A stretch of 64,000 bases of DNA, taken from the NCBI GenBank assembly GCA_964553135.1, contig CAZKJL010000002.1:124224-188223 (forward strand), in the 5' to 3' direction. The stretch is from an uncultured Candidatus Peribacteria bacterium. GTDB lineage: Bacteria > Patescibacteriota > Gracilibacteria > Peribacterales > Peribacteraceae. Shown here piece after piece: positions 579-49,161 of this stretch. The first letter of the stretch is position 1. The number at the start of each line of letters is the position of its first letter. The translations under genes and the position numbers were made by a program. The notes below the pieces were generated by a model, which made no database searches, was not told the DNA's origin, and was given only the letters and a program-made list of their open reading frames with translations.

Positions 579-623
579 GGAAACCAAGGAAACCAAAGAA
601 ACCAAGGAATCCAACGAAACCAC
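579..623. repeat. Half element of the 9-nt-periodic repeat family (five tandem 9-mers)
   Basis: The units are GGAAACCAA GGAAACCAA AGAAACCAA GGAATCCAA CGAAACCAC, lying between the Nudix stop (634) and the rel start (525). The same 9-mer forms the arms of the hairpins at 31742, 40452 and 41966. No inverted partner is present here. Confidence 0.8.
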
Positions 624-1803: not shown

Positions 1804-2865
1804 TTAACGGCGGGACGGCTTTTCGTAGCGCGTCGTGATCTTTTCGACCGGACACTCGCCCGTGCGCTGAAGCGTGAGGAGCTTGAGCGGAGAAGTCTCC
1901 GGGTCGGTGCAAGCCGGGTTCGGCTCGGACCAAACAGGCTCCGTCGTTGTCTCCATGGATTCGTCGGTCGGTTCCATGGGAATCGGCATCATCATGTCTT
2001 CTTCCATCATGTCTTGCGGCAAATCACCGCTGAGTTGGTTGAAGGTCTTCATGAGATCTTCGATCGTCACGGCGTCTGCGGGAGCCTTGATCGCAAGAGC
2101 GCCCTTGAGAGCAGTTTCCTTCCCGCTGGCCGTGAATTCGGAGAAGCGTCCGTCCATGCTCATGGTGTAGTTGCTCGAGACGAAGGCGCCCTTCGCATCG
2201 GTGGCGAGGTTCATTTCGAAGTGCATGCCTTCGGCGAGCTCGCGCCACGGGAAGAAGTCCGTGCTGGCGGGCTGCGTGTCCTGGAGCAGCTCACGGATCA
2301 TGAGTGCGAGTTCCGGAGCGTAGTCGGTGTTGAGGTTGAGCGTGTAGTTCGTACCGGACTTCGTTCCGGCGGATTGCATCGTGAACATGCCGTCGGCCTT
2401 GGAAGCGTCCACGGAACCGAGATTCATGGCGACGGGCCCCGCGATGTCGCGCAGCATCACCATGTCGAGAGGCGTGGCGAACCACTGCTTCTGGTTGGCG
2501 ATGGCGGAGAACGATGCGAAGGCGTTCGTTGCGGATGCGTTAAGGTTCGTGACTTTCACGTAGACCATGCCGTCCACGACGATGACCTCACCTTTGAGGC
2601 GAACTTTCATGTCGTTTTGAACGATATCGACGGTGGCCTTCGTGGACATCGTCATGTCATCCGGAGTCATGCCTTGCTGGACGCCGTTGGCCCAGACGGT
2701 GACGTACATACCCTGGCTTTCGCCGTGAGCGGTCACGGAGAAACTGCGGGGGCTGCCGCTCTCTTGGAGCTGCGTGAAAAGTTCACCCGGCGTCATGGCA
2801 GCTGCTGCTGCGACGAGCGGGGAGAGGAGGAGGGCGGCGGAAACCGCCAGTGCGAGACGTTTCAT
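1804..2865 (-). CDS. Secreted hypothetical protein
   Basis: Long ORF. I prefer the internal start MKRLALAVSAALLLSPLVAAAAAM (signal peptide) at 2865 rather than the ORF-track start at 2922. No family recognised. Confidence 0.65.
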   Translation of the reverse strand: MKRLALAVSAALLLSPLVAAAAAMTPGELFTQLQESGSPRSFSVTAHGESQGMYVTVWANGVQQGMTPDDMTMSTKATVDIVQNDMKVRLKGEVIVVDGMVYVKVTNLNASATNAFASFSAIANQKQWFATPLDMVMLRDIAGPVAMNLGSVDASKADGMFTMQSAGTKSGTNYTLNLNTDYAPELALMIRELLQDTQPASTDFFPWRELAEGMHFEMNLATDAKGAFVSSNYTMSMDGRFSEFTASGKETALKGALAIKAPADAVTIEDLMKTFNQLSGDLPQDMMEEDMMMPIPMEPTDESMETTTEPVWSEPNPACTDPETSPLKLLTLQRTGECPVEKITTRYEKPSRR

Positions 2866-2941
2866 AAAGAGGTTGGAGGGAGAAATTGGGGATGACGATA
2901 TCATAAAAAATGATTCCTGCAATGTTGAGAATATTCAGAGC

Positions 2942-3019
2942 GAATACAAGGAATTCAAAGAATACAAGGATTGCAACGATCCCTGTATTCTTTGCACTCT
3001 TTGTATTCCTTGTATTCTT
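2942..3019. repeat. 9-nt-periodic imperfect palindromic hairpin
   Basis: Left arm is GAATACAAG GAATTCAAA GAATACAAG GATTGCAAC. Right arm is CCCTGTATT CTTTGCACT CTTTGTATT CCTTGTATT. It starts 3 nt after the uvrA stop codon. Confidence 0.8.
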
Positions 3020-10041: not shown

Positions 10042-11061
10042 ATGCTCATCGTTCTCCGTGAAAAGAACAACAAAGCGCTTCTCGACGAGGTGCAGGGACT
10101 CCTCCAAACCAAGTTTGGGTGCCCATCGCACGTCATCGGAGAGAATAAGCGCGTGCTCGCCGTCACCGGCGATACGTCCGTCGTGGATGTCGCCCAGATC
10201 AAAAGCATCGAGGGCGTGAAGTCCGTCGACCGCGTGGACAGGCCGTACAAACTCGCCTCACGCGAGAAGAAGAATCGCACCCTCATCACGGTCTCCAAAG
10301 ACTGCGTCATCGGCGATCCGACCTCGGTCGTCATCATCGCGGGTCCCTGCTCCATCGATTCCGAAGGACAGCTCGATGAAACGGCGGCGATGGCCAAGGA
10401 AAAAGGAGTGAAGATCCTCCGCGGCGGTGCGTACAAGCCGCGCACGGGACCGTACTCGTTCCAAGGCAAAGGCAATGAAGGGCTCGCTCTGCTCAAGAAA
10501 GCGGGAGAGAAGTACGGCATGCAGACCATTTCCGAAATCATGAAGGCAGAAGATCTCCCTGCATTCGAGGACACCGTGGACATGCTCCAGATCGGAGCGA
10601 GGAACATGCAGAACTACGAACTCCTCAAAGCGGTCTCCAAATCCAAGAAGCCCGTGATGCTCAAGCGCGGACTTGCCGCCACGCTCGAGGAGTGGCTCCT
10701 TGCCGCCGAGTACTTGCTCGCGGGCGGTAACCAAAACGTCATGCTCTGCGAGCGCGGCATCCGCACGTTCGAGGAAGAAGTGCGCTTCACGCTCTGTCTC
10801 GGCTCCGTGCCCGCACTCCGCGAGCTCACGCACCTTCCCATCATCGTGGACCCCAGCCATGCCATGGGCAAAATGCGTTGGGTGAAAGACGCAGCACTCG
10901 GTGGAGTCGCCGTCGGCGCCGACGGACTCATCATCGAGATTCATCCGCGTCCCTCCGAGAGCGCGTGTGACAGCGCCCAGCTCCTCGATCATGAACACTG
11001 GTCCGACTGTATGGACGGCATCACGAAGGTCGCAGCCGCACTCGGTAAGAAGGTCGTCTAA
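10042..11061 (+). CDS. aroF: 3-deoxy-7-phosphoheptulonate (DAHP) synthase, type I-beta, with an N-terminal regulatory domain
   Basis: 339 aa. The core motif is RGGAYKPRTGPYSFQG, preceded by a ferredoxin-like N-terminal extension of about 80 aa. Confidence 0.9.
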   Translation: MLIVLREKNNKALLDEVQGLLQTKFGCPSHVIGENKRVLAVTGDTSVVDVAQIKSIEGVKSVDRVDRPYKLASREKKNRTLITVSKDCVIGDPTSVVIIAGPCSIDSEGQLDETAAMAKEKGVKILRGGAYKPRTGPYSFQGKGNEGLALLKKAGEKYGMQTISEIMKAEDLPAFEDTVDMLQIGARNMQNYELLKAVSKSKKPVMLKRGLAATLEEWLLAAEYLLAGGNQNVMLCERGIRTFEEEVRFTLCLGSVPALRELTHLPIIVDPSHAMGKMRWVKDAALGGVAVGADGLIIEIHPRPSESACDSAQLLDHEHWSDCMDGITKVAAALGKKVV

Positions 11062-11088
11062 TCCTTTCCACAGGCCTACAATCACGTC

Positions 11089-12135
11089 ATGCAGACCCTC
11101 ACGCTCACAGCTCCGGCTCACGCACCGCGCGCCACATCCATCGTCATCGGCAAGGACACGCTCACGGCACTCCCGAAGATCCTCAAGGACCTGAAGGCCG
11201 ATCGTGTCGCCGTACTCTTCGATGCCGGCATCAAGACGATCGCCGACGGCATCATCAAGAATCTCGGACCCAACGTCATTCCCGTCGCCGTCGCCTCGGG
11301 TGATGCATCGAAGTCGCTGGCAGAAGTGGAAAAGATCGTGAAAAAGCTACTCGATGCGGGAGCCACGAGAAAGACAGTATTTGTCTGCATCGGCGGAGGC
11401 ATGCTCACCGATCTCGGCGGATTTGCCGCAAGTATCTTCATGCGAGGCGTTCCGTGCGTGCTCGTCCCGACCACGATGCTCGGAGCCGTCGATGCGGCCA
11501 TCGGAGGCAAAACGGCAGTGAACTCCGGGGGTCGAAAAAATATGATCGGCACCATCGCACAGCCCCATGCGGTCGTCATCGATATGAAGCTCCTGCTTGC
11601 TCTTCCTGAGGCACAACTCAAAGAAGGACTCGTCGAAGTCATCAAGATCGCCGCCATCGTGGACTTGCCGTTCTTCGAGTGGCTGGAAGACAACATCATG
11701 GCTGTTCTCAAGCGTGACGACGAAGCGTGTTTCGAATGCGTGTCGCGTGCCGTGGAAGCCAAAGTAAAAATCGTCGAGGCCGATGAGCATGATCGCGAAG
11801 AGCGTTTGCTCCTCAACTTCGGCCACACCGTCGGTCACGCCGTGGAGGCGCTCTCGAACTACGAGATGGCGCACGGTACGGCGGTCGGCATCGGTATGCG
11901 CGCCGAAATGGCGCTTGCGAAGTTCAAGGATGCCAGGCGCGTTTCGGCGCTTCTCGATCTGCTCGGACTTCCGTCGAATATTCCCGCATCGATGAAGCCC
12001 GCAGCCCTGTGGCAAGCCATGCAGTCGGATAAGAAGAACGAAGGCGGCGAGGTCCGTGTCGCGGTGCCCACGCACATCGGCGAAGGGTCGGTGCATGCCG
12101 TCACCGAGAAAGATTTTCTGAAACTCTTTTCATGA
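11089..12135 (+). CDS. aroB: 3-dehydroquinate synthase
   Basis: 348 aa with typical motifs (GGGMLTDLGGFAA, LNFGHTVGHAVE). Confidence 0.9.
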   Translation: MQTLTLTAPAHAPRATSIVIGKDTLTALPKILKDLKADRVAVLFDAGIKTIADGIIKNLGPNVIPVAVASGDASKSLAEVEKIVKKLLDAGATRKTVFVCIGGGMLTDLGGFAASIFMRGVPCVLVPTTMLGAVDAAIGGKTAVNSGGRKNMIGTIAQPHAVVIDMKLLLALPEAQLKEGLVEVIKIAAIVDLPFFEWLEDNIMAVLKRDDEACFECVSRAVEAKVKIVEADEHDREERLLLNFGHTVGHAVEALSNYEMAHGTAVGIGMRAEMALAKFKDARRVSALLDLLGLPSNIPASMKPAALWQAMQSDKKNEGGEVRVAVPTHIGEGSVHAVTEKDFLKLFS

Positions 12136-13883
12136 AGACATCCGTTTCCATTCCCGTGCTTCGCATTCCTCTTCAGGCGTCACTCACGCTTCCGGGGTCC
12201 AAGTCGCATGCCAACCGCGCCATCGTGTGTGCCGTGCTTGCCAAGGGAACGACGGTGATTCATGGCGCCACCCCGTGCGACGACGTTGCGGTGATGGTGG
12301 AGAATCTGGGGAAGCTCGGGTTCGATGTGTCGTGGATCGACAAAGAAAAAGGTGAACTTCGGATCAACGGCGGTATTCCCGCAAAGGCAGGGAAGGGGAC
12401 GCTCGATTGTCACAACGCGGGAACCACGCTTCGGTTCTTGGTATCGCTCGCGTGCATCGTTCCCGGCGAATGGACCATTACCGGTGACGACCACATGAAG
12501 AAACGTCCCATCGCGGATCTGACGACGGCACTCAAGAGTCTCGGTGCCGATATCCGCGATACCGACGGATGTCCGCCGATTCATATCCGCGGAGGAACGC
12601 TCAAAGGAGGTGAGGTCACGCTGGATGCCAGTATCAGCAGCCAGTTTCTCTCGTCGCTTCTCTTGATCGCTCCGATGCTGGAGAACGGTTTGTCCGTTAC
12701 CGTCGCAAGCACCCTTGCGTCATCCGGATACATCGAACTCACAAAGAAGACGATGAAGGATTTCGGCATTCAGATATCACAAAAATCGAATACATTTATT
12801 GTACAATCAGGAACATACGATTCGAAATCGACCTACGACATCGAAGGGGATTGGAGTGCCGCGGGTGCATGGCTCGTGCTCCGTGAACTCACGGGCAGCA
12901 TGATCACGTTCCCGAACCTTCGTCCCGATTCCACGCAGTCCGATCGCGCCCTTCCGTCCGTTCTCGGAACGCTTCGCACGTCCGGCGACATCGTCATCGA
13001 TGCCGCACAAATCCCGGACCAAGTCATGAATCTCGCGGTACTCGCTTCGCGTCGCAGCGGATCGATGACCGTCACGAACGCGGCGAATCTGCGCCGCAAA
13101 GAATGCGATCGTCTCGCGGTCATCACGTCCGAACTTTCCAAAGCGGGCGTGCGCATCGCCGAAACAGCCGACGGCATCGTGGTGCACGGTTCAAAAGCGG
13201 AGGGCGCGACGAAAGCCGTCACGCTCGATCCGCACGATGACCACCGCATGGCGATGTGCTTCGCCGTTCTCGGACTTCTCCGAGGCAACGTGAGCATCTC
13301 CAATCCCGACTGCGTGGGAAAAAGTTACCCCGCGTTCTTCCGTGACCTCGAAGAACTCTTGAAGTCCACGCGTCCCGTCACCGTCATCGGCATGCGCGGC
13401 GTCGGGAAGTCGAGTATGGGCAAGAGATTGGCTTCCAAGCTCAAGCTCAAGCACATCGATACCGACAAGCTGTTCGAAAAAAAACACGGGCCCATTCGTC
13501 CGTTCGTCGCCGAGAAAGGTTGGCCCGCATTCCGTGCCGCCGAAGAAGAAGTGTTGGCCGAGGCGCTGTTGCCCGGACGCATCGTTTCGCTCGGCGGAGG
13601 CGCGCTCATTTCCGAGAAGTCGCGCAAGCTCGTCCGCGACCGTTCCATCGTCGTGTGGCTCAAGGCATCCGAGACGGAACTCGTGAAGAGGCTCGGGAAT
13701 GAAAAGCGTCCCTCTCTCACGGATCTGCCGCTGCATGAAGAAGTGAAGAAGCTCGTTGCCGAGCGCACGCCGCACTACAGGGAGGCCGCGCACATCGAGG
13801 TCGGTGAGAAGCTGCGGTTCTCCGAGCACACTGCGCACATCATCCGCGAACTTACGCGCATCACCCGTTCTCCGCGTTCATGA
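12132..13883 (+). CDS. aroA: Fused EPSP synthase / shikimate kinase
   Basis: 583 aa. The N-terminal ~425 aa are EPSP synthase (LPGSKSHANRA, DHRMAMCFAVL). The C-terminal ~150 aa carry the shikimate-kinase P-loop VIGMRGVGKSSMGKRLA. ATGA overlaps occur at both ends. Confidence 0.88.
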   Translation: MKTSVSIPVLRIPLQASLTLPGSKSHANRAIVCAVLAKGTTVIHGATPCDDVAVMVENLGKLGFDVSWIDKEKGELRINGGIPAKAGKGTLDCHNAGTTLRFLVSLACIVPGEWTITGDDHMKKRPIADLTTALKSLGADIRDTDGCPPIHIRGGTLKGGEVTLDASISSQFLSSLLLIAPMLENGLSVTVASTLASSGYIELTKKTMKDFGIQISQKSNTFIVQSGTYDSKSTYDIEGDWSAAGAWLVLRELTGSMITFPNLRPDSTQSDRALPSVLGTLRTSGDIVIDAAQIPDQVMNLAVLASRRSGSMTVTNAANLRRKECDRLAVITSELSKAGVRIAETADGIVVHGSKAEGATKAVTLDPHDDHRMAMCFAVLGLLRGNVSISNPDCVGKSYPAFFRDLEELLKSTRPVTVIGMRGVGKSSMGKRLASKLKLKHIDTDKLFEKKHGPIRPFVAEKGWPAFRAAEEEVLAEALLPGRIVSLGGGALISEKSRKLVRDRSIVVWLKASETELVKRLGNEKRPSLTDLPLHEEVKKLVAERTPHYREAAHIEVGEKLRFSEHTAHIIRELTRITRSPRS

Positions 13884-15274
13884 TCATCGTCACGCTCCCG
13901 ACATCGGCACAGAAAGATCCGCGGACCTTCGCACGCGACGCGCGCAAGGCCGAGGTCGATGTGCTCGAAATCCGAGGCGACCTGACGCCCGCGCTTTCTG
14001 CGTTCGAATCACCGCTTCCCATCCTCTTTTCTCCCCGTGGCAAAGGCCTGAAACTTGCCGAGAGGCTCTCACCGGCGTACATCGATCTTGATCTCGCGGA
14101 ACTCGCACTGCGTCAAAACATGCCCGAAGGCGCCAAGCTCATCGCCAGTTTTCACGATCACAAGGGAACGCCCGACCTCAAGAAGTTGAAAGGAGTCTTG
14201 GACAAACTCTGCGCCGTTCGTCCGTGGGCCGTCAAAATCGCCGTTACGGTCAATTCGTGCGACGATTTGCTGATACTCGAGGCGCTCCGTGCATACGCCT
14301 CGCATCCACGTACGACGATTCTCGGCATGGGGCCTGCCGCGCACCTGATCCGCGTGCTCTCGCCGCTCAACAACCATCTCACGTACGCCGCACTCGGTAC
14401 GGAAGCTTCGGCCCCCGGGCAGCTGACGGTCGCGTTTTACAAGCTCCTCAAGAATCGCACGAAGCCCAAGCTGTACGGCATTCTCGGCGGTCCGCAGATC
14501 ACCGCATCGCTCAGTCCCCTCATTCACAATGCGCTCTTCCTGAAGCACGGCATCGATGCGCTCTACTCATGCTTCCCGTCGACCGATTTCACGGCTTCCA
14601 TCAAGGCTCTCGAGCAACTGGGTCTCGCGGGACTTTCCGTCACGGCTCCCTTCAAGCGCGATGCGTTCGAGTTCGCACGTACGAACGATGCGGTGGCGAC
14701 GTCGCTCGGGGTCACGAACACGCTCGTGAAGTCGGGCAAGAGTTGGAACGGTTTCAATACCGACATCGTCGGCATCGAAAAGGGTTACCCGCTCATCGCC
14801 AAGGCCGCGAAGATCGCCGTGCTCGGTGCGGGTGGAGCCGTGCCTTCCGTCATCTCCGCCGTTCGGAGCGTGAACGCCAAGGCCGAGATCGGCGTCTACG
14901 TTCGCGATATCAAGAAAGCCGCTGAGTCACTCGGTGTCTCGGGTTTCACGATTCAGCCGCTTGAGAGCATCAAGAAAGCATCTGCCGATCTTGTGATCTG
15001 CGCCGTGTCCGAGGATGTTCGATTGCCGCTACCGAAGTCCGTGGGCACGTCGGCCGCAGCCATCGATTTACGCTACGGGAAGGCCACGAACTTCATCAAA
15101 GATGCACGAAGCCAAGGGTTTCACGTCCACGACGGCACCGCGATGCTCATTCACCAAGCACTCAAACAATTCGAACATTTCACGGGCAAGAAATCGGCGC
15201 CCGACGATGCCGCGCACCTGGCCAAAGTCATCGCTTCATTCACTCCCAAAATCCGTTCATCTTTCCACCTCTGA
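13880..15274 (+). CDS. aroDE: Fused type I 3-dehydroquinate dehydratase / shikimate 5-dehydrogenase
   Basis: 464 aa. The N-terminal ~185 aa resemble AroD type I (VLEIRGD, ASFHDHKGTP, AVKIAV). The C-terminal part is AroE (KLYGILGGPQITASLSPLIHN, LGAGGA). Confidence 0.85.
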   Translation: MIIVTLPTSAQKDPRTFARDARKAEVDVLEIRGDLTPALSAFESPLPILFSPRGKGLKLAERLSPAYIDLDLAELALRQNMPEGAKLIASFHDHKGTPDLKKLKGVLDKLCAVRPWAVKIAVTVNSCDDLLILEALRAYASHPRTTILGMGPAAHLIRVLSPLNNHLTYAALGTEASAPGQLTVAFYKLLKNRTKPKLYGILGGPQITASLSPLIHNALFLKHGIDALYSCFPSTDFTASIKALEQLGLAGLSVTAPFKRDAFEFARTNDAVATSLGVTNTLVKSGKSWNGFNTDIVGIEKGYPLIAKAAKIAVLGAGGAVPSVISAVRSVNAKAEIGVYVRDIKKAAESLGVSGFTIQPLESIKKASADLVICAVSEDVRLPLPKSVGTSAAAIDLRYGKATNFIKDARSQGFHVHDGTAMLIHQALKQFEHFTGKKSAPDDAAHLAKVIASFTPKIRSSFHL

Positions 15275-15276
15275 GT

Positions 15277-16269
15277 ATGGCTTCAAATTCCTTCGGTTCA
15301 CTGCTCCGCATCACCACGTTCGGTGAGTCGCATGGCCCCGCGCTCGGCGTCGTGATCGACGGTTGCCCCGCCGGCATTCCGCTCGGCATCGAAGATCTTC
15401 TTCCCGAGCTTGAGCGCCGTCGTCCCGGTCAAAGTGCGGTCACGACTCCGCGCAACGAAGCCGATGCGCCCACGATTCTCTCGGGCGTTTTCGAGGGAAA
15501 GACCACGGGCATGCCCATCACCGTGACGGTCCAGAACAAAGATCAGAAGAGCGCCGACTACGACAAACTCAAGGATGTGATGCGCGTCGGTCACGCCGAT
15601 GCCACGTTCCAAAGCAAGTACGGTCACCGCGATCACCGCGGCGGCGGACGTCAGTCCGGGCGCGAAACGGTGTCCCGTGTCATTGCCGGAGTCATCGCCA
15701 GAAAAATCTTGCCGAAGAGCACCAAGATCATCGGCCACACCGTCAAAATCGGGGCTCTGGAAGCCAAAGTCTTCAAGCCTGAGACCATCGAGAAGAACCC
15801 CGTTCGTTGCGCCGATCCTGCCATGGCCAAGAAGATGGAAGCCTACATTTTGGAATGCAAAGCCGCTGCCGACTCCACGGGCGGACTCATTCAGATCCGC
15901 ATCCAAAAGCCTCCGAAGGATTTGGGCGACCCCGTGTTTGAGAAACTCAAGTCACGTCTCGCGAACGCCGTCATGACCATCGGCGCCGTCACCGGATTTT
16001 CGTACGGTGCCGGATTCAAGACCGCCGAGATGCGCGGCAGCGAATACGCCGCGAATCCGGAGAATTTCGGCGGACTGCTCGGTGGCATTTCCACGGGGGA
16101 CGACATCATTCTCACCGTGAGCATCAAGCCGTCCTCGTCCGTCGGCCAAGTCGCCAAGGAAGGCCGCCACGATCCGTGCATCGTTCCCCGCGTCATTCCC
16201 GTTCTCGAGGCCATGGTCGCACTCGTTCTGGCCGATTCATTACTTCTCCAGCGCGCCTACGCCCGCTGA
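15277..16269 (+). CDS. aroC: Chorismate synthase
   Basis: 330 aa: FGSLLRITTFGESHGPALGVVIDGCPAG, GRHDPCIVPR. Confidence 0.93.
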   Translation: MASNSFGSLLRITTFGESHGPALGVVIDGCPAGIPLGIEDLLPELERRRPGQSAVTTPRNEADAPTILSGVFEGKTTGMPITVTVQNKDQKSADYDKLKDVMRVGHADATFQSKYGHRDHRGGGRQSGRETVSRVIAGVIARKILPKSTKIIGHTVKIGALEAKVFKPETIEKNPVRCADPAMAKKMEAYILECKAAADSTGGLIQIRIQKPPKDLGDPVFEKLKSRLANAVMTIGAVTGFSYGAGFKTAEMRGSEYAANPENFGGLLGGISTGDDIILTVSIKPSSSVGQVAKEGRHDPCIVPRVIPVLEAMVALVLADSLLLQRAYAR

Positions 16270-16283
16270 TTTCTTTTCTCTCT

Positions 16284-16553
16284 ATGACATCACTCACCAT
16301 GCAAGAAATTCGAAAGGCCATCGATGACGCCGACGAGATTTTGCTCCGCGCACTCGCCACACGTTTCCGTGCCGTCGCGCACATGAAGGAACTCAAGCGC
16401 GACGCGCAGATGCAGATCGAAAGTTCCTCGCGCGAGACCGAACTCAAGGCGCTCTGGAAAAAGCGCGCCAAAACGCTCGGTGTCTCCGAAGAACTGGCGC
16501 TCCTCATCCTCGATTTCATTCTATCCGAGAGCAAACGCGTCCAAGGATCATGA
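16284..16553 (+). CDS. Chorismate mutase (AroQ class)
   Basis: 89 aa from MTSLTMQEIRKAIDDADEILLRALATRF..., a helical AroQ-like sequence. I chose this internal start because the ORF-track start overlaps aroC. Confidence 0.8.
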   Translation: MTSLTMQEIRKAIDDADEILLRALATRFRAVAHMKELKRDAQMQIESSSRETELKALWKKRAKTLGVSEELALLILDFILSESKRVQGS

Positions 16554-17398
16554 AGATCACCTCACGACACATCGTCGGCATCATCGGCGGGAAAGGCCGT
16601 ACCGGCAGGCAGTTTTCGGCTCTGCTTAGGGCTCTCGGGCACCGCGTGCTTGTCTCGGATATCGGCTCAGCACTCAAAACATCCGATCTCCTCAAAGCTG
16701 CCGACATCGTGCTCTTCGCCGTCCCGCTCTCCGATGCGGCGGACATCATTCGTACCGAGGTCATCAAGGCAAAGCGCAAGGATCAGCTTATCCTGGATGT
16801 CAGTTCGCTCAAATCGAACGAAGTGAAAGCGATGCTCCGCGGAAGAGGGGAAGTCATCGGCATGCACCCGCTCTTCGGTCCGAGTACGGAACCGAAAGGC
16901 GAGACCATCGTCCTTTGTCCGGCGCGCGCATCCAAAGAGACGGTCGTGTCACTCACGGGACTGCTGAAGAAAGCGGGCCTCAAGACCGTCGTCATGACGC
17001 CGCAGGAACACGACAAGCTCATGTCGGTCGTGCAGGTCATTCCGCACCTCAAGAGTTTCCTGATGGCGGACACCATGCGCGACCTCGGCGTCGATCTCAC
17101 GAAAGTTCTCAAGACCTGCACACCGACCTACGAACTGGAGTTCAACGTCATCGGCAGATTCCTCGATGACCACGCGGGGCTCTACATGCCCATCATTTTC
17201 CGGAATCCCGAGACGACGAAGATTCTGAAATCTCTTCGCAAGCGCATCGACGAATACATCGTTCTCGCCGAACGCAAAGATATCTCCGGCGCAGAGAAGC
17301 GTTACGCCAGGTCCAAGAAATTCTTCGCACCGCATCTCAACATCGCTCGCGCACACAGCGAAGCCTGCATCCGTACGCTTCTTTCCCTCTCACGATGA
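16550..17398 (+). CDS. tyrA: Prephenate dehydrogenase
   Basis: 282 aa with the Rossmann N-terminus VGIIGGKGRTGRQF and a PDH-like core. ATGA overlaps both neighbours. Confidence 0.85.
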   Translation: MKITSRHIVGIIGGKGRTGRQFSALLRALGHRVLVSDIGSALKTSDLLKAADIVLFAVPLSDAADIIRTEVIKAKRKDQLILDVSSLKSNEVKAMLRGRGEVIGMHPLFGPSTEPKGETIVLCPARASKETVVSLTGLLKKAGLKTVVMTPQEHDKLMSVVQVIPHLKSFLMADTMRDLGVDLTKVLKTCTPTYELEFNVIGRFLDDHAGLYMPIIFRNPETTKILKSLRKRIDEYIVLAERKDISGAEKRYARSKKFFAPHLNIARAHSEACIRTLLSLSR

Positions 17399-18180
17399 TC
17401 CGCACACTCGGACCCGCCGGCACGTTCTCCCACGAAGCGTGTGAGAAAATATTTCCGGGCAAACCCGTCACCTTCGAGCCGAATTTCGATGCTCTGTTTG
17501 AGTTTTTGTCTGCGCATCCCACGGACATCGGCATTGTGCCCATCGAGAACAGTTTGCACGGATCCATCGATGAAATTTTGGACCTGCTCCGCGAATCCAA
17601 GGTCCGCATTTGGAGCACGGAGGACCTGTCCATCAAGCATGCATTCGGCGCCAAAGAGCCCCGGTCGGTGCGGAAAATCGCCTCTCACTCCCAGGCGCTT
17701 CGACAGTGTCGCAAGTGGCTCAAGGAGAAGTATCCCGAGGCCGAACACCTTTCGGTGAGCAGCACGGCATCGGCCGCCGAACTTACGGCGAAAGATCCGT
17801 CCGTCGGTGCCATCGCATCGGCTGCGGTTCTCAAGAAACACGGGCTCACCGTCATTTCGGAAGACATCGAAGGCGACGGCAACACCACGCGCTTCGCGGT
17901 CGTGTCGGCACAAGACCCCATGCCCGGGAAAAAGCGAACGCACATGATGATCGTCATTCAACCCAAGGTGGATCGCCCGGGACTCCTGCACGACTTGCTC
18001 GTGCCGTTCAAAGTGTACGACCTCAACATGACGCGCATCGAAAGTCGTCCCGCCGGTACCAAGTTCGGCGACTACGTGTTCTTCATCGATTTCCAGGGCA
18101 GCCCCGATGAACCCAAGGCGCTGCAGACGCTCAAAGATTTGCGTTCCATCGCCACGGTCGACGTTCTCGGCCAGTGGTAA
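17395..18180 (+). CDS. pheA: Prephenate dehydratase with a C-terminal ACT domain
   Basis: 261 aa: LGPAGTFSHEA, then the ACT-like region MMIVIQPKVDRPGLLHDLL...TRIESRP. Confidence 0.88.
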   Translation: MIRTLGPAGTFSHEACEKIFPGKPVTFEPNFDALFEFLSAHPTDIGIVPIENSLHGSIDEILDLLRESKVRIWSTEDLSIKHAFGAKEPRSVRKIASHSQALRQCRKWLKEKYPEAEHLSVSSTASAAELTAKDPSVGAIASAAVLKKHGLTVISEDIEGDGNTTRFAVVSAQDPMPGKKRTHMMIVIQPKVDRPGLLHDLLVPFKVYDLNMTRIESRPAGTKFGDYVFFIDFQGSPDEPKALQTLKDLRSIATVDVLGQW

Positions 18181-18200
18181 TTATTTCTTTCCCTCTTTGT

Positions 18201-19367
18201 ATGTCCAGGTCCATGTTCTCCTCTCTACCCGCCGCAAAGCCCGATCCGCTCTTCGCGATCGCGGCCGAGGCGCGGGCGGCGGGACCGACGTGCATCGACG
18301 GGACGCTCGGCGTCTACATGGATGAAGAGGGGAAGCCCCTCATGCTTCCGAGTGTCGGCAAAGCCATGAACGAGCTCGGGAAAACGCTCAAGGATTTCAA
18401 CTGCGCATACCCGCCGCTCACGGGGCTTCCGAGTTATCGTTCGGCCGTCCACAAACTCATCGCCACAGAGTCCGACATCGTCGCGTCCATCGCTTCGACG
18501 GGAGGTACCGGGGCGCTCGCCATCAACCTGCGGCTCATGAGCATGCTTTTGGGCTCCGAGAAGCCAAATATCATTCTTCCGATGCCCGCCTGGGCAAACC
18601 ACATGCCCGTCTGCAAGTGGGCCGGATTCACCGTCATCGAAACGCCGTACTTGGTGAACAAGAAGGCGAGCATCGATGCCATCGCGGACACGATCAAAAC
18701 ACAGAGCGGCAAGTTCGGCATCATGCTCCAGGTCGGGTGTCACAATCCCACGGGTCTCGATCTCGCCGATGCGGATTGGCCTGCGCTCATCAAAATTCTG
18801 CAGACGAAAGAATGCGTGGTGCTCCTGGACTTCGCGTACCAGGGATTCAAGGGCGAGCCCGAAGCCGATGCGGTGGCCATCCGTCTCTGCCGAGAGGCCG
18901 GACTCACGACGCTCGTCACGTGGTCGGCGTCCAAAAACCATTCCATCTACGGACTCCGCACGGGGCTTGCCGCCGCGTTCGTCAATGCCGAGGACGAAAA
19001 GAAAACCGTGGAGGGAACGTACTCCGTCATCTCGCGAGGACTCCATTCCGCTGCTCCCACGTTCGGCCAAGCCGTCGTGGCGCTCACGCAGGAGAAGTAC
19101 CGCACCGAGTGGCTGAAAGATCTCGCCGATGCACGCGCCATGATGAGTAAAAAGAGGAAGCTTCTCATCGACGGACTTCCGCCCTCGTGCACACCCGCAC
19201 TCAGCGGCTACGGCATGTTCGCCATGCTGCCCCTCAGCCCCGAGCAAGTGACGCGCCTCAAGACCCAGCACAACGCGTTCGTACCTCTCGACGGCCGCGT
19301 GAATATCGCCGGCATTCCGCTCAAGCGCATCGGAGAGCTCTGTGAGAAGGTAAAAGCGGTGCTCTAG
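18201..19367 (+). CDS. Aromatic/aspartate aminotransferase (class I, TyrB/AspC-like)
   Basis: DPLFAIAAEA... at the N-terminus and the PLP-lysine motif SASKNHSIYGLRTG. The start is ambiguous (18201 or 18213). Confidence 0.85.
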   Translation: MSRSMFSSLPAAKPDPLFAIAAEARAAGPTCIDGTLGVYMDEEGKPLMLPSVGKAMNELGKTLKDFNCAYPPLTGLPSYRSAVHKLIATESDIVASIASTGGTGALAINLRLMSMLLGSEKPNIILPMPAWANHMPVCKWAGFTVIETPYLVNKKASIDAIADTIKTQSGKFGIMLQVGCHNPTGLDLADADWPALIKILQTKECVVLLDFAYQGFKGEPEADAVAIRLCREAGLTTLVTWSASKNHSIYGLRTGLAAAFVNAEDEKKTVEGTYSVISRGLHSAAPTFGQAVVALTQEKYRTEWLKDLADARAMMSKKRKLLIDGLPPSCTPALSGYGMFAMLPLSPEQVTRLKTQHNAFVPLDGRVNIAGIPLKRIGELCEKVKAVL

Positions 19368-23947: not shown

Positions 23948-24024
23948 TGGTGCCCCCGGCAGGATTCGAACCCACGACCTCCTGGTCCGAAGCCAGGCGC
24001 TCTATCCAGCTGAGCTACAAGGGC
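23948..24024 (-). tRNA. tRNA-Arg (anticodon TCG), CCA encoded
   Basis: Hand-folded cloverleaf: GCCCTTG TA GCTC AGCTGGATA GAGC G CCTGG CTTCGGA CCAGG AGGTC GTGGG TTCGAAT CCTGC CGGGGGC A CCA. Several G-U pairs occur in the acceptor and T stems. Confidence 0.8.
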
Positions 24025-24275
24025 ACTAGGGATAGTGTAATGGATTATTCATAGAACGCGCAGGCGCTTTTTTAATGACGCTTTGCTACCGCAAAGCTAG
24101 GCCAGCTGAGCTACAAGGGCACTGGGATAGTGTAATGGATTATTCATAGAACGCGCAGGCGCTTTTTTTAATTACGCTTTGCTACCGCAAAGCTAGGCCA
24201 GCCGAGCCAGAAGGGCACTGCTCTGAATTGTCGCGGATTCTTCGCAGAACGCACAGGCGCTTTTTAGGATTTTGC
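24006..24275. repeat. About 2.8 tandem copies of a 96-bp unit, each containing the first 19 nt of tRNA-Arg(TCG) plus its upstream flank
   Basis: CCAGCTGAGCTACAAGGGCAC occurs at 24006 and 24102, with a degenerate copy CCAGCCGAGCCAGAAGGGCAC at 24198. The intervening 75 nt are near-identical between copies 1 and 2 and diverged in copy 3. Confidence 0.9.
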
Positions 24276-31430: not shown

Positions 31431-31593
31431 GATGAATGTGGTGGAGCTCAGGGGACTTTGGACCCCTTACCTCTTCCATGCCATGGAAGCGCTCTCTGAG
31501 GTAAGAATATCGATGAAATGTGGTGGAGCTCAGGGGACTTTGGACCCCTTACCTCTTCCATGCCATGGAAGCGCTCTCTGAGGTAAGAATATC
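31431..31593 (-). pseudogene. Two tandem ~81-bp copies of the 3' two-thirds of tRNA-Ala(GGC)
   Basis: Units at 31431-31511 and 31512-31593 repeat the 9-nt 3' flank, the acceptor 3' strand, the T arm (loop altered: GGGGACTTTGGACCCC versus GGGGACTCGAACCCC) and the anticodon arm. They then diverge (CTGAGGTAAGAATATC) where the D arm should be. Confidence 0.85.
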
Positions 31594-31602
31594 GATGAAA
31601 TG

Positions 31603-31678
31603 TGGTGGAGCTCAGGGGACTCGAACCCCTTACCTCTTCCATGCCATGGAAGCGCTCTACCAGATGAGCTAGAGCCCC
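31603..31678 (-). tRNA. tRNA-Ala (anticodon GGC), CCA encoded
   Basis: Hand-folded cloverleaf: GGGGCTC TA GCTC ATCTGGTA GAGC G CTTCC ATGGCAT GGAAG AGGTA AGGGG TTCGAGT CCCCT GAGCTCC A CCA. The G3-U70 identity pair is present. Confidence 0.92.
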
Positions 31679-31741: not shown

Positions 31742-31822
31742 GGAAACCAAAGAAACCCAGGAATCCAAGGAAACCAAGGATATCGTTGGTTTCTTTGGTT
31801 GCTTTGGTTTCTTTGATTTCTT
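31742..31822. repeat. 9-nt-periodic palindromic element (GGAAACCAA family)
   Basis: GGAAACCAA AGAAACCCA GGAATCCAA GGAAACCAA, loop GGATATCGT, then TGGTTTCTT TGGTTGCTT TGGTTTCTT TGATTTCTT. Confidence 0.88.
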
Positions 31823-31836
31823 TGTATAATCGGGCC

Positions 31837-36033: not shown

Positions 36034-36038
36034 CGGCA

Positions 36039-36130
36039 GATTGCAAAGAATGCCAAGAGTGCAATGATCGCAAGGATCAATGCAATACTTCAAACAAGGA
36101 GAGTGAAGTTCCTTCCATTCATTGCAGTCC
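36039..36130. repeat. Degenerate 9-nt-periodic element
   Basis: GATTGCAAA GAATGCCAA GAGTGCAAT GATCGCAAG begins 5 nt after the rsmG stop. The partially complementary arm CTTCCATTC ATTGCAGTC lies at 36112-36129, with 14 of 18 positions complementary. Confidence 0.6.
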
Positions 36131-36416
36131 TTTTACAGGTGCTGCGAGAGTGATGTAACCACCACGACCAGACAGGCTGCAAAGACAACGAGCAGCGGCG
36201 AAATTCCCAGAGTGCGTTCGCGCATAGGGTCGAGGGGAAAAAATAGTGAACGACGTGAGTATATGCAGCGCCGATTGGCGGGCAATTGTGCGAAGGGTAA
36301 AGTAGTATGCAGTCATAGTATTTTCTTCGGCAGTATTCCAAGAAAGGTGCTACAGTAAGCCAAGAATCAGAGCCTCTGACGTAGCGACAAATTGCCGGTT
36401 TTACGCAAGTTCATCC

Positions 36417-39485: not shown

Positions 39486-40451
39486 ATGGAAAATGCGGCC
39501 GTTGCGGCTCTCCTTCGGCAGATCGGCGACATCCTCGATTACCAGGGCGTGCAGTTCAAGCCCGCCGCATATCGTCGTGCCGCGCAGACCATCGAAGACC
39601 TGAGTACCGACATCGCCGAACTCAAGGACAAGAAGGCGCTCAAAGAACTTCCCGGTGTCGGCGACGCCATCGCCGATAAAATTTTGGAATACTTCAAGAC
39701 GGGACGCATGAGCTTCCTCGACGCGCTCAAGGCCGAAACGCAGATGGGAGCGGCGGGACTTCTTTCCGTCGACGACCTTGGCCCCAAGCGGGTGCGCGAA
39801 CTCGAAAAAATCGGCATCCTCACGGTGCCGCAGCTCATCGAGGCGGCGGAAAAAGGAAAGCTGCGTGATCTTCCGCGTTTTTCGGAAATTCTCGAGAAGA
39901 AAATTTTGGAAAGCGCCAAACGTTCGGGCGAGAGGTCGAAGCGTTTCGATCTCAAAGACGTGGAGCCCGACGTAAAGACGCTCGTCGCCACGCTCGCCAA
40001 CATCAAAGGCGTCATCCATGTGGAGGCCGCAGGTTCCTTCCGCCGCAGAAAGGAAACCGTTGGGGACGTCGATGTGCTCATTGCCGTGAAAAAAGCATCG
40101 GCAGATCTGGCCGAGTCCATCCACAAAGCCATTGGGAAGCTTCCCATCGTGGAGCGCATCGTGGCTTCGGGACCCACACGCATCGCTTTCGATCTCACAT
40201 CGGGTCTGCGCACCGATATTCGCATCGTCGAAGAAAAGCAGTGGGGCAGCGCACTTCTCTATTTCACGGGAAGCAAAGAGCACAACATTTCACTCCGCCG
40301 CCGCGCCATCGACAAAGGCATGAAGCTCTCGGAGTACGCGCTCTTCAAGAACGACAAAGTCGTGGCCTCGCGCACGGAGAAAGATATCTACAAGGCACTG
40401 GAGTTGCCGTTCATTGAGCCGAATGTACGCACTGCGGAACTTCCCGTGTAA
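39486..40451 (+). CDS. Family X DNA polymerase (Pol beta-like core only, no PHP domain)
   Basis: 321 aa with HhH motifs (LPGVGDAIADKI, VDDLGPKRVREL) and the nucleotidyltransferase motif GSFRRRKETVGDVDVLI. Confidence 0.85.
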   Translation: MENAAVAALLRQIGDILDYQGVQFKPAAYRRAAQTIEDLSTDIAELKDKKALKELPGVGDAIADKILEYFKTGRMSFLDALKAETQMGAAGLLSVDDLGPKRVRELEKIGILTVPQLIEAAEKGKLRDLPRFSEILEKKILESAKRSGERSKRFDLKDVEPDVKTLVATLANIKGVIHVEAAGSFRRRKETVGDVDVLIAVKKASADLAESIHKAIGKLPIVERIVASGPTRIAFDLTSGLRTDIRIVEEKQWGSALLYFTGSKEHNISLRRRAIDKGMKLSEYALFKNDKVVASRTEKDIYKALELPFIEPNVRTAELPV

Positions 40452-40552
40452 GGAAACCAAAGAAACCCACGAATCCAAAGAGTCCAACGAAGTTCGTTGG
40501 TTACCTTGGTTTCCCTGCCTGCCGGCAGGCAGGTTCGGATTCCTTGGTTTCC
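40452..40552. repeat. 9-nt-periodic palindromic element (GGAAACCAA family) interrupted by a 20-bp perfect palindrome
   Basis: GGAAACCAA AGAAACCCA CGAATCCAA AGAGTCCAA, loop CGAAGTTCG, TTGGTTACC TTGGTTTCC, then the insert CCTGCCTGCCGGCAGGCAGG, then TTCGGATTCC TTGGTTTCC. It fills the whole convergent gap between the polX stop and the mscS stop. Confidence 0.88.
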
Positions 40553-41953
40553 TTATTGCAGTCCTCCCACGACCTGTACCGTGTTGTACGCGAGCTCGAT
40601 GTTCTCCGCTGCCTTGAATTGGTCGAGGATCGATTTGGACAACGTGGTGATGACGGTGCGGCGTTTGCCGATGGGCACCGTGAACTTGAGCGTGAAGAGC
40701 ACGCCGCTGCTGGCGATATCGGTGTGCACTTCGGGTTCGCCCACTTCCCACATGGTGTAGAAGAGCGCCGTACGTCTGCGTTGCTGGGCCTGGGCTTGCT
40801 CCACGAACGAGCCCGTTTCCGTGACGAGCGCTTCGTGAATGATGGCTTCCGCCTTCTTCCGGTCGCTGGCGTACGTCACGGTGACTTGCATTTCCACGCT
40901 CATGAAATCCGAGGTCGTGTTGTAGTTCAAAATCGGGTCGCGGAGCACCATCGAGTTCGGTACGTAGAGCGTCTTGCCCGTCCGTTCGTGCGCGTTGAAG
41001 GCGCCGTCGGTGCTCACTTCGAGCATCGTGGTGCGCAGGGGTCCGATGTCGATGATGTCGCCGGTGTACTTGCCGATGGACGCGCGGTCGCCGAGCGTGA
41101 AGAGACGGCGCTGCCAAATGATGATCCAGCCCATGAAGTCCTTCACCACGTCTTGGAGCGCGACTGCAATACCCGCACCCACAATGGCGAGCGATGCCAG
41201 CGCACCCGGATGATCCGAGATCAATTTGCTGAAGATCCAGAGCGATGTGAGGACGTAGATGATGGCGGTAACGATTTTGGAGATGAGGTAACGGCCGCCT
41301 TTGGTTTCCAATCTCTTGGCCAGACGTTTTCTGATGAATCGGTCGAGGACGATGGCGCCGAGAATGATGAGGACGTAACTGCCGAAGCCGAACAGCGATG
41401 AGAACTGATCGATCCATTGTTCGCGGTTGAGCTTGCTGAGGCGGTCGTTTTGGAGCGCAAGCCCCGCATCGAGCGCGGCGATGCGCTCCTCCAAGATCGC
41501 TTTCTTGGCCAAGAGCTCACCGTGCGTCTTGGTGAGGCGCAAGACGTCGGTTTCGGTGTCGGCGGTATCGGACAGATAAAATTTCTTTTCTTCTTCGGAG
41601 AGCAGGTCCACGTCCACGGCTCGGTTGCGTCGTTGTTCCTCCAATTGCTGCACGATGGCTCGCTGACGGTCGATGGCTTTCGGGAGCGCCATGGTATCGA
41701 GCGCCTGGTCGTCTTTATCGCTCTGATCGACGAGAGCTTTCACCTCTTTGTCCGCCATGGTGCGCACGCGGGCGCGTTCGTCGACGATGCGTTTTTCCAA
41801 ATACGTGTCCGTGGAATTTTTCTTCAGGAAGGCCGTGTAGAGCGCGGTGAGCGTGGCTTCGTCGTAGTTCGGAGCTTGCTGCGCGAGAAGCGCACTCGGA
41901 AAGAGGGCGAGTGCCAAAGACAGAAAAAGGCCGACGGAAACGGTGCGTCGCAT
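40553..41953 (-). CDS. MscS-family mechanosensitive channel with an N-terminal periplasmic coiled-coil domain
   Basis: 466 aa with a signal peptide, a long helical region, transmembrane segments and an MscS beta-domain-like C-terminus (GDRASIGKYTGDIIDIGPLRTTM). Confidence 0.8.
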   Translation of the reverse strand: MRRTVSVGLFLSLALALFPSALLAQQAPNYDEATLTALYTAFLKKNSTDTYLEKRIVDERARVRTMADKEVKALVDQSDKDDQALDTMALPKAIDRQRAIVQQLEEQRRNRAVDVDLLSEEEKKFYLSDTADTETDVLRLTKTHGELLAKKAILEERIAALDAGLALQNDRLSKLNREQWIDQFSSLFGFGSYVLIILGAIVLDRFIRKRLAKRLETKGGRYLISKIVTAIIYVLTSLWIFSKLISDHPGALASLAIVGAGIAVALQDVVKDFMGWIIIWQRRLFTLGDRASIGKYTGDIIDIGPLRTTMLEVSTDGAFNAHERTGKTLYVPNSMVLRDPILNYNTTSDFMSVEMQVTVTYASDRKKAEAIIHEALVTETGSFVEQAQAQQRRRTALFYTMWEVGEPEVHTDIASSGVLFTLKFTVPIGKRRTVITTLSKSILDQFKAAENIELAYNTVQVVGGLQ

Positions 41954-41965
41954 GCGCTAAGTATA

Positions 41966-42046
41966 GGGAACCAAAGAAATCAAGGAAACCAAAGAAACCA
42001 ACGATATTCGTTGGTTACCTTGGATTCTTTGGATTCGTTGGTTTCT
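41966..42046. repeat. 9-nt-periodic palindromic element (GGAAACCAA family)
   Basis: GGGAACCAA AGAAATCAA GGAAACCAA AGAAACCAA, loop CGATATTCG, then TTGGTTACC TTGGATTCT TTGGATTCG TTGGTTTCT. It lies 5 nt downstream of the hppA stop. Confidence 0.9.
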
Positions 42047-42050
42047 TGTT

Positions 42051-44120
<2,070 letters not shown>

Positions 44121-48988: not shown

Positions 48989-49161
48989 ACAATGGAAGGA
49001 GTTTTATTTTCTTCCAATTCCCTTCATGGCCAAGGCCAAGAAAGCAAAGAAGTCGAAGGCGAAGACCAAGAAGAAGAAGGCGACGAAAAAGAAAAGGAAA
49101 TAGTCGCCATCCTTTTTGAGGAAAGACGTCCTGCTTGCGGGGCGTTTTTCCGGTACGGCCG

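Follow-up and report, generated by a model that had tools for sequence, protein, structure and literature searches.

The 64-kb window analyzed here, the whole stretch of 64,000 nucleotides (57% G+C) from an uncultured Candidatus Peribacteria bacterium, carries six copies (E1-E6) of a family of intergenic hairpins whose arms are arrays of tandem 9-mers. The bacteria of the Candidate Phyla Radiation (CPR) have small, tightly packed genomes, and we know of almost nothing that has been established about how their transcripts end. The MscS-like protein encoded in the window has its closest named homologs in Candidatus Peribacteraceae/Peribacteria (66-69% identity), and the same DNA occurs in bioreactor and wastewater metagenomes. 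Neighboring genes were identified by Pfam and by the gene calls of an identical contig (L001; the loci compared below carry labels of the same kind). A sequence-only reading of the window had placed such hairpins at 579-623, 31742-31822, 40452-40552 and 41966-42046; all four are present as it described, and two further copies lie at 2941-3018 and 36038-36125. In order along the window, the copies and their neighbors are:

E1, 579..623: one-armed, five units (GGAAACCAA GGAAACCAA AGAAACCAA GGAATCCAA CGAAACCAC), no fold (z -0.7); separated by 10 nt from the stop codon of a Nudix gene (634-1113, minus strand).
E2, 2941..3018: variant units GAATACAAG / CTTGTATTC, 4 + 4; fold -36 kcal/mol, z about -7; 4 nt after the stop codon of uvrA (3023-5938, minus strand) and upstream of an open reading frame (ORF) at 1804-2922 (minus strand).
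E3, 31742..31822: 4 + 4 units, loop GGATATCG; fold -42.3 (plus strand) and -34.6 (minus strand) kcal/mol, z -7.1 and -6.3; within a divergent gap, flanked by the 5' side of tRNA-Ala (31603-31678, minus strand) and by the purE start (ATG at 31837).
E6, 36038..36125: decayed array of the TGCAA type (GATTGCAA AGAATGCCA AGAGTGCAA TGATCGCAA), right arm mostly eroded, z -1.4; begins 5 nt past the stop codon of gidB (36033; gene identity from the L001 gene calls).
E4, 40452..40552: hairpin; fold -50 and -58 kcal/mol, z -6.3 and -7.7; occupies the whole convergent gap from the polX stop (40451) to the stop of the MscS-like gene (40553).
Nested palindrome, 40514..40533: 20 nt, GC-type, CCTGCCTGCCGGCAGGCAGG; within the right arm of E4.
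E5, 41966..42046: 4 + 4 units, loop CGATATTCG; fold -42.6 (plus strand) and -34.0 (minus strand) kcal/mol, z -6.9 and -6.1, with pairing that reaches out to 41960-42052; hppA ends 4 nt away (stop 42051-42053, minus strand), and the MscS-like gene starts 12 nt beyond the other end (41953).

The strict 9-nt periodicity that had been claimed for these arms is borne out: Tandem Repeats Finder (TRF) assigns period 9 to every arm, and a lag scan of the window (sliding self-identity) finds a tandem signal at lag 9 alone, with none at 6, 7, 8, 10, 11 or 12. The arms follow the consensus RGAAWCCAA, with variants such as GAATACAA and GANTGCAA; the motif occurs 17 times in the window against 2.27 +/- 1.46 expected, and 17 or more occurrences were seen in 0 of 100 shuffles. 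The idea of a single unit shared by all copies did not hold up. Although 331 units in 80 arrays give R-G-A-A-W-C-C-A-A overall, the unit varies between elements in its middle three bases, defining the sub-types ACCAA, TGCAA, TACAA and GACAA, while the CAA-RGA core is strictly conserved across them. Elements are 75-101 nt long with four to five tandem 9-mers per arm; unequal arms, with 4 units against 8-10, were found in L033, L060 and L004. The loop mostly reads CGA(N0-4)TCG, so that the axis of symmetry falls within a unit.

Folded as RNA, the full hairpins of the window have energies between -34 and -58 kcal/mol (z between -6.1 and -7.7), equaled by none of 200 shuffles. Against the 57% GC of the sequence, A makes up 50-58% of the 5' arms and T 53-65% of the 3' arms; whichever strand is read, the A-rich arm precedes the T-rich one. 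Gathering-threshold Rfam scans of the window and of nine element-rich loci returned tRNAs alone. There was no rRNA match in the window or in the gene-bearing cassette loci described below; every copy lies between protein-coding or tRNA genes. The elements are found on independent contigs from several runs and are not assembly artefacts, a possibility that the sequence-only reading had raised against itself.

All six frames of the consensus arrays are free of stop codons, and spurious ORFs therefore traverse every hairpin; for this reason an ORF spanning an array was rejected as a criterion for coding arrays. Such stop-free repeats will routinely cause errors in calling gene starts. At L117:1091-1171, for example, the MscS start has been called 20 codons too early, at an ATG inside a TGCAA-type array. 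As a practical matter, repeats that are both stop-free and self-complementary break metagenome assemblies and extend called ORFs, as they did for this MscS start. Two gene ends also resemble the arrays: the last codons of the MscS-like gene in the window (40553-40567), GGACTGCAA-TAA, are similar to a TGCAA-type unit, and at L090:2266-2425 the C-terminus of the upstream protein, E-P-E-E-P-K-E, is encoded by outer arm units. Read in this way, the ends of genes can apparently be built of element sequence.

Association with gene boundaries is marked. A frame of at least 100 codons ends within 10 nt of the element boundary in 19 of 31 elements, and in five of the 31 this is so on both sides; random placement gave 2.0 +/- 1.4 of 31, with a maximum of 8 in 2,000 trials. 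The original assignment to gene ends stands for the Nudix, polX/MscS and hppA copies and fails for the copy at 31742-31822, which lies in the divergent promoter gap between tRNA-Ala and purE. Sequences resembling -10 boxes follow two of the elements: TATAAT (31824-31829) directly behind E3, and TATACT behind E5, about 6 nt ahead of the MscS-like ATG (41951-41966). Their position about 6-10 nt before the purE and MscS-like start codons suggests leaderless transcripts or transcripts with very short leaders. Ahead of MscS, every relative compared (L116, L118, L119, L208, L209 and L211) retains the TATACT, whatever fills the gap. Candidate -35-like hexamers in the T-rich arm, 16-18 nt from TATAAT/TATACT, were considered and dropped, the spacings being unfit on a reading of the sequence.

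The elements behave as dispersed copies. Sequencing depth in the source metagenome rises 4-5-fold exactly over E4 and E5, owing to reads from other copies, and the contigs carrying those other copies diverge at 40449-40453 and at 42045-42047, the ends of the elements. E4, E5 and a non-syntenic element of another species (L101) have the odd variants ACCCACGAA, GGTTACC and GGATTCGTTGG in common, which argues that they are copies of one source and not local inventions. In a marine metagenome-assembled genome (MAG), arrays flank cores of 40-224 nt that are 94-96% identical between loci, and the 54-nt cores retain both ends of the 224-nt core, as expected of nested deletions. No consistent target-site duplication was found at well-defined ends in the flanks of E2-E5 and 15 other copies; E4 alone can be read as having a TA duplication. 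We conclude that the family is dispersed and multi-copy, with sub-types. The palindrome CCTGCCTGCCGGCAGGCAGG nested in E4 has exact copies in other Peribacteria species (L031:2431-2450, L061:1953-1972 and L061:7544-7563), one of them about 80 nt downstream of a PF05635 gene, and it is missing from the L116 version of the MscS/polX gap; it is a second small family of dispersed palindromes, inserting into other palindromes.

Comparison of orthologous gaps shows how quickly the elements change. E2 is kept in a related strain and E5 in L116. The gap holding E1 is 67 nt longer and unalignable in a strain of about 97% identity; the locus is thus polymorphic, and the copy in the window is probably truncated. 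Polymorphism between strains, which the sequence-only reading had proposed to look for, is therefore seen in the E1 gap, and it is seen again in the MscS/polX gap. The contents of the two best-sampled gaps are:

MscS/polX gap, window: ACCAA-type hairpin.
MscS/polX gap, strain with a 99% identical MscS: TGCAA-type hairpin.
MscS/polX gap, 88% relative: GACAA/TACAA-type hairpin.
MscS/polX gap, 70% relatives: an empty gap of 14 nt, or overlapping genes.
MscS/polX gap, other relatives: GC-rich hairpins or an AT-rich array-like hairpin.
Gap from hppA to MscS, window and near strain: ACCAA hairpin.
Gap from hppA to MscS, 88% relative: TGCAA array.
Gap from hppA to MscS, L118, L208 and L209: canonical terminators (A-tract, GC-stem, T-tract).
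Gap from hppA to MscS, one other relative: no gap.
Gap from hppA to MscS, L211:9834-10000: 167 nt, a larger palindrome that encloses two GC-rich ones, CCCCTTCTCCGGATTCCGGAGAAGGGG and CCTCTCTCCAGAATCTGGAGAGAGG.

Some hairpin is present in nearly every relative that has a real convergent gap, suggesting that the slot keeps "a hairpin after the gene" and that the kind of hairpin is freely exchanged. In the orthologous gap of L073 and L090, likewise, both loci have 9-periodic hairpins made of different units. Thus the intergenic slots stay fixed while their elements change, even between close strains, and these slots, where transcription units end, correspond to those that terminators occupy in relatives. 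In one relative, a reverse-transcriptase gene (RVT_1, 350 aa; L119:6928-7980) adjoins the MarR/polX/MscS block; it may be of interest as the PF05635 proteins considered below are homologs of Avd, an accessory protein of diversity-generating retroelements.

The taxonomic spread of the family was examined by searching 185,579 species, each represented by one genome, for three units in a row, which matched at least 113 stretches. Among the matches listed, clusters of the hairpin type (forward and reverse arrays) come only from MAGs of Peribacteria/Patescibacteria and from one MAG labeled Kiritimatiellales, so that the predicted recurrence in related genomes was found; the hairpin-bearing MAGs span 41-61% G+C. 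The exception, "Kiritimatiellales bacterium Tobar13.5m-G78" (L067, L073 and L088), was rejected as evidence of spread beyond the CPR: its contigs are syntenic with those of Peribacteria/Patescibacteria, with 50-83% protein identity, and the MAG label or its binning is apparently wrong, at least for those contigs. The other non-Peribacteria matches (Rhizobium, Streptomyces, Gilliamella and others) are one-directional arrays and hence a different thing. A phage origin was also discarded, as none of 88 viral stretches with the three-unit motif was of the hairpin type, all being one-directional and coding-like. Four relatives at 65-70% MscS identity are essentially array-free across about 20 kb each, from which we take the family to be patchy within the class Peribacteria. 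One-directional 9-mer arrays also occur in frame inside long ORFs (L011:4472-4507, L088:720-764, L009, L022, L038 and L089), where they always read as K-E-T/K-E-S repeats; one lies in a loop of a conserved 430-aa membrane protein and is present in two orthologs of 83% identity. The 9-mer unit is thus used in coding DNA too.

The same arms were found around a gene. PF05635 is a large protein family for which we know of no function, and which to our knowledge has been met only in rRNA intervening sequences (IVSs) and, distantly, in Avd. In L069 a forward and a reverse array stand 390 nt apart around an intact ORF of 119 aa that matches the Pfam family 23S_rRNA_IVP (PF05635, E = 1e-33) and, more weakly, bAvd; the neighbors of this cassette are a phosphoglucomutase-family gene and recJ. 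Peribacteria-type loci yielded eight PF05635 genes, and in five of these loci (L069, L292, L293, L294 and L033) inverted 9-mer arrays stand on both sides. The arm units of the first four are of the RGAAWCC(A/G)A type, those of L292, L293 and L294 reading RGAGTCCAA / RGAAACCGA; the arms of L033 are AAAGGAGAW. As to the remaining loci, L073 has an arm of the family directly past the PF05635 stop, L095 has a direct array of period 8 (AATCAGYT), and the gene of L061 runs off the end of the locus.

The link between cassettes and short hairpins is closest at the loop. The arms of the L069 cassette end inward as CCAACGAAT[GGAT...ORF...GTAA]ATCGTTGG, and the loop of E5 is precisely these two inner ends brought together, CCAACGAAT meeting ATCGTTGG; in L116 and L101 the junction is CCAACGAAC with ATCGTTGG. 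This match indicates that the short hairpins are the same stem without its ORF-bearing core and, judged by their sequences, hairpins and cassette stems are probably homologous. Since the same arms bracket PF05635 genes, the family stands nearer to IVS-type stem-loops than to the repetitive extragenic palindromes (REPs) and their REP-associated tyrosine transposases (RAYTs).

The generality of this association was assessed in 80 metagenomic loci encoding relatives of the Peribacteria PF05635 proteins (35-52% identity). Arrays of period 7 were found in 27 of 154 flanking segments against 12 of 591 controls, arrays of period 8 in 12 of 154 against 9 of 591, and arrays of period 9 in 3 of 154 against 1 of 591; other periods were not seen. 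Bracketing was scored as the ungapped complementarity of the upstream and downstream flanks, with displaced and mismatched controls. The median score was 17 as compared with 7 in both controls (control maximum 12), and 51 of 66 loci lay above every control. The period is clear in 27 of the 51 bracketed loci, being 7 in 18, 8 in eight and 9 in one, and in 43 of the 51 the purine-rich arm is the one upstream of the ORF. A duplex-energy measure of the same flanks (median -104 kcal/mol) was withdrawn, the displaced and mismatched controls giving -98 and -78.

A precedent exists in Coxiella, where the IVS forms a stem from 28-bp inverted repeats that is cut by RNase III in mid-stem, carries a decaying S23p ORF in its loop, and has tandem heptamers before that ORF in a number that varies between strains (PMC4990558). 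Insertions in the rRNA genes of CPR bacteria have also been reported with PF05635 ORFs (PMC11270868). Within the literature we could search, which leaves out most subscription journals, the hairpins are undescribed, as is a general link of PF05635 genes to arrays beyond Coxiella.

Taken together, these observations favor a reading to which we would give a probability of about 55%: the elements are ORF-less "solo stems" of a Peribacteria-wide stem-loop element whose full form carries a PF05635 gene, and they act as two-way hairpins at the 3' ends of RNA. The composition of the arms resembles the A- and U-tracts of a two-way terminator. An element transcribed at the 3' end of a gene would form a long, regularly mismatched RNA stem, and this stem would set 3' ends in both directions. 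One route would be intrinsic termination, with an inner stem backed by a U-rich unit: as soon as the inner units are paired, UUGGUUUCU would emerge behind them, and its weak RNA:DNA hybrid could release the polymerase. As an alternative or in addition, the stem would be cut by RNase III, the enzyme that excises the homologous rRNA intervening sequences. By either route the element would stand in for the ordinary terminators of relatives. The 9-nt periodicity would be a property inherited from the cassette family, and it would allow the stem to pair in any register and to tolerate the gain or loss of units; that a stem slipped by one unit should still pair fits both the unequal arms and the chance-level pairing at variable positions.

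Whether the elements deserve to be called terminators depends on how strictly the term is used. The sequence-only reading was right that no T-run follows the whole hairpin and that the textbook form is absent: the stems are AT-rich where a GC-rich stem and a U-tract would be looked for. Its statement that they are not terminators was nonetheless too strong, given that the corresponding slots of relatives hold canonical terminators and that the 3' arm is U-rich; a lax scan for simple terminators flagged the inner stems, together with the T-rich next unit, of two elements.

Several observations weigh against the favored reading. The adjacency to stop codons is partly a by-product of very short intergenic gaps, and about five of the 31 elements (E3, L053 and L061 among them) lie in divergent or promoter gaps, where no terminator is needed. 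Half of the eight convergent gene pairs at 32-54 kb overlap with no gap at all, and ordinary terminators with a GC-stem and T-run are also present in the host genome; a gene end can thus do without an element. At the variable positions of the unit, 1 and 5, pairing is missing from roughly every second stem, as compared with 16-33% elsewhere; this is close to the chance rate of pairing and leaves no compensatory covariation. In 10 of 13 cases the sense strand folds more stably as RNA than its complement, with a mean difference of -2.0 kcal/mol, which is weak evidence of selection on the sense RNA. There is no PF05635 gene within the window, all six copies there being ORF-less, and the direction of change is a further difficulty, as the ORF may have been lost from a cassette or may have been inserted into the loop of a hairpin. 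Lastly, cassette sites are syntenically conserved (PGM-IVP-recJ in L069 and L292, ychF-IVP-RNHCP in L293 and L294), and the cassettes therefore do not look recently mobile.

The strongest competitor, which we regard as unlikely, is that the elements are purely selfish DNA of the REP kind or of the kind of miniature inverted-repeat transposable elements (MITEs), spreading by copying and landing harmlessly after stop codons, with no function for the host. It agrees with the favored reading on origin and differs from it only on an effect at the level of RNA. Much of the copy behavior would suit it: the patchiness within the class, with four relatives at 65-70% nearly array-free over about 20 kb each; the rapid replacement of sub-types in one slot; the copies in divergent gaps (E3, L053 and L061); the truncated or decayed copies E1 and E6; the multi-copy cores with nested deletions and the second palindrome nested in E4; and variable positions that lack covariation. 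It accounts less well for a 9-mer that is constant across genomes of 41-61% GC, for slots that in relatives hold terminators or other hairpins, and for arms composed like A- and U-tracts, and neither a transposase or RAYT in the window nor a consistent target-site duplication was found. Also conceivable, and more doubtful still, is that the units of 7-9 nt are docking registers for an oligomeric protein, most plausibly a pentameric PF05635 protein, serving regulation, nucleoid organization or propagation. Avd, a homolog of S23p, binds nucleic acid. According to work cited in PMC4990558, S23p is a pentameric toroid. The strict conservation of the CAA-RGA core beside three variable middle bases, and the tie of PF05635 genes to periodic arrays in many taxa with the purine-rich arm upstream in 43 of 51 loci, speak for such docking; it is harder to reconcile with the lack of a PF05635 gene near the window copies and with a binding that is itself putative, it would require co-evolution given how widely unit sequence and period differ between taxa, and only 27 of the 51 bracketed loci have a clear periodicity.

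A very improbable account is that host terminators grew in place, by replication slippage of a module of 9-bp stem and T-tract acting independently at each site. The hppA-to-MscS terminator of L209, CCAAGAAGCCGACGA-GTAA-TCGTTGGCTTCTTTTTTT, does resemble a one-unit array hairpin, and slippage predicts the unequal arms (4 against 8-10) of L033, L060 and L004. Growth that was independent at each site would not, however, arrive at one 9-mer, one loop junction and one set of odd variants in different species and at unrelated loci; nor does it explain the PF05635 cassettes, or the replacement of all units in both arms where the flanking protein is 99% identical. The shared derived variants largely refute it. 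A relation to the tandem interspaced guide RNA (TIGR)-Tas systems or to arrays of guide RNAs like those of CRISPR (clustered regularly interspaced short palindromic repeats), also known in CPR bacteria, comes to mind on finding short-period, poorly conserved arrays in a CPR genome, and has next to no probability. TIGR arrays consist of units of about 36 nt, with two alternating repeats of 8-12 nt and two variable spacers of 9 nt, and of 5-15 such units in one direction beside a tas gene with a Nop domain (PMC12045711). The arrays described here have period 9 with two to three variable bases, form inverted pairs scattered at gene ends, and have housekeeping neighbors; on architecture an identity with TIGR-Tas or CRISPR (compare PMC12045711) was ruled out.

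The favored reading of solo stems at RNA 3' ends would give the study of CPR transcript ends concrete sites, in the form of a lineage-wide family of hairpins in terminator positions. The link to PF05635 matters more: a gene regularly enclosed by stems of tandem 7-9-mers, with stems of the same kind also scattered gene-free, would give several puzzling types of short intergenic repeat a shared origin. Going further, and only tentatively, since we think it improbable in its full breadth, PF05635 proteins and periodic inverted arrays could together constitute an unrecognized bacteria-wide class of elements with ORF-bearing and "solo stem" members, in which a pentameric four-helix-bundle protein would recognize the register of 7-9 nt in the arms, as DNA or as RNA, and aid persistence, processing or copying. 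Were this so, rRNA intervening sequences, short tandem repeats of the cyanobacterial type and the gene-end hairpins of the CPR would be one system, and the function of the large orphan family PF05635 would become directly testable.

Other features of the window deserve mention. Fragments of tRNA genes are tandemly repeated at two places: at 31431-31658 an 82-nt unit that includes the 3' part of tRNA-Ala (31603-31678) is present in about 2.8 copies, and at 24006-24265 a 96-nt unit that takes in the initial ~19 nt of tRNA-Arg (23948-24024) and its upstream region is present in about 2.7; both look like stacked scars of integration or excision, or like local duplications. The gap between gidB and ftsJ (36034-36416; also L208, L209, L210 and L211) is non-coding over 187-383 nt in all relatives, unusually long for an otherwise compact genome, and has no Rfam match; it may contain an undescribed RNA or a regulatory region. 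At 49020-49100, behind the ribosome-binding site GGAAGGAG, a tiny ORF encodes a very lysine-rich peptide of 26 aa, MAKAKKAKKSKAKTKKKKATKKKRK; a terminator with GC-stem and T-run comes after it, and the 229-nt gap that holds it is bordered by an anthranilate-synthase-like gene and a TPR gene. A row of shikimate and aromatic amino-acid genes that looks complete extends over 10042-19367, with DAHP synthase, DHQ synthase, an EPSP synthase-shikimate kinase fusion, a dehydroquinase-shikimate dehydrogenase fusion, chorismate synthase, prephenate dehydrogenase, prephenate dehydratase and an aminotransferase; with riboflavin and pentose-phosphate genes near it, this is fairly rich biosynthesis for a CPR bacterium.

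Among known systems, the architecture recalls the foldback (FB) transposons of Drosophila, which have long inverted terminal repeats made of short tandem sub-repeats and many copies consisting of arms alone; these are eukaryotic, of kilobase scale and moved by other transposition machinery, and the analogy is one of architecture only. The Correia or nemis elements of Neisseria and other MITEs are short, non-autonomous inverted repeats that fold into hairpins in mRNA. Those of the Correia type are RNase III substrates, can serve as promoters or terminators, and exist in full-length and internally deleted forms; MITEs in general have defined terminal inverted repeats, target-site duplications (TA in Correia) and related insertion sequences that bear a transposase. 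The present family shares with them a multi-copy state with internal-deletion derivatives, seen in the cores of the marine MAG and in short hairpins that correspond to the L069 cassette minus its core. It departs from them in having no consistent target-site duplication, in arms that are tandem arrays, and in ORF-bearing relatives that encode a PF05635 four-helix-bundle protein and not a transposase.

Bidirectional intrinsic terminators are similar in their A-rich 5' and U-rich 3' sides, their strand symmetry and their position in convergent gaps or just past stop codons, and relatives carry them in the very slots of the elements; their stems are short and GC-rich, whereas those of the elements are long, AT-rich and regularly mismatched, with no separate U-run. 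The comparison with REPs and MITEs made by the sequence-only reading was apt insofar as these are dispersed, multi-copy intergenic palindromes; a REP signature (a unit of 20-40 nt with a conserved head) and a consistent target-site duplication are absent. As in the REP-RAYT system with its bacterial interspersed mosaic elements (BIMEs; PMC3333891), imperfect palindromes are present in high copy in gaps, mostly right after genes, differ in presence between strains, and likely have a role as hairpins at RNA 3' ends. Unlike REPs, the elements are about 80 nt long (75-101 nt as against 20-40 nt), lack a GTAG-type head and have an internal 9-nt periodicity. The cognate RAYT-like transposase that had been suggested was not found: about 50 scanned proteins of the window and the L001 gene calls contain no transposase and no Y1_Tnp/RAYT domain, and the ORF associated with the family encodes a four-helix-bundle protein, not an HUH nuclease.

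The heptamers of cyanobacteria, known as short tandemly repeated repetitive (STRR) sequences, and the TAACTGA repeats of Beggiatoaceae (PMC4679880) are also lineage-restricted, patchy, intergenic tandem arrays of short units with an unknown origin, and arrays of period 7 are the commonest kind around PF05635 genes. They are described as direct 7-nt repeats, mostly upstream of genes, with no mention of hairpin pairs or of PF05635 (PMC4679880); the elements of the window have period 9 only and form inverted pairs. In defining features the family departs from REP/RAYT systems, classic MITEs, TIGR arrays, STRRs and textbook terminators.

The closest resemblance is to the S23p-type rRNA IVSs of Coxiella burnetii and Leptospira (PMC4990558). 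In both, terminal inverted repeats pair into a long stem whose loop holds a PF05635 ORF (here in L069, L292, L293, L294 and L033), short tandem repeats of a copy number that varies between strains lie beside the ORF, and short stem-loops would result from decay or loss of the ORF. The differences are that the elements lie between protein-coding genes and not in helix 25 or 45 of 23S rRNA, that their arms consist wholly of 9-mer arrays where Coxiella has heptamers, and that many dispersed ORF-less copies are present per genome. Two of the four hallmarks of S23p-type IVSs are therefore found here, the stem and, in the ORF-bearing forms, the PF05635 ORF, while the location in rRNA is not. By analogy, the family would work most like an ORF-less IVS, or like a Correia-type hairpin, placed at the ends of genes.

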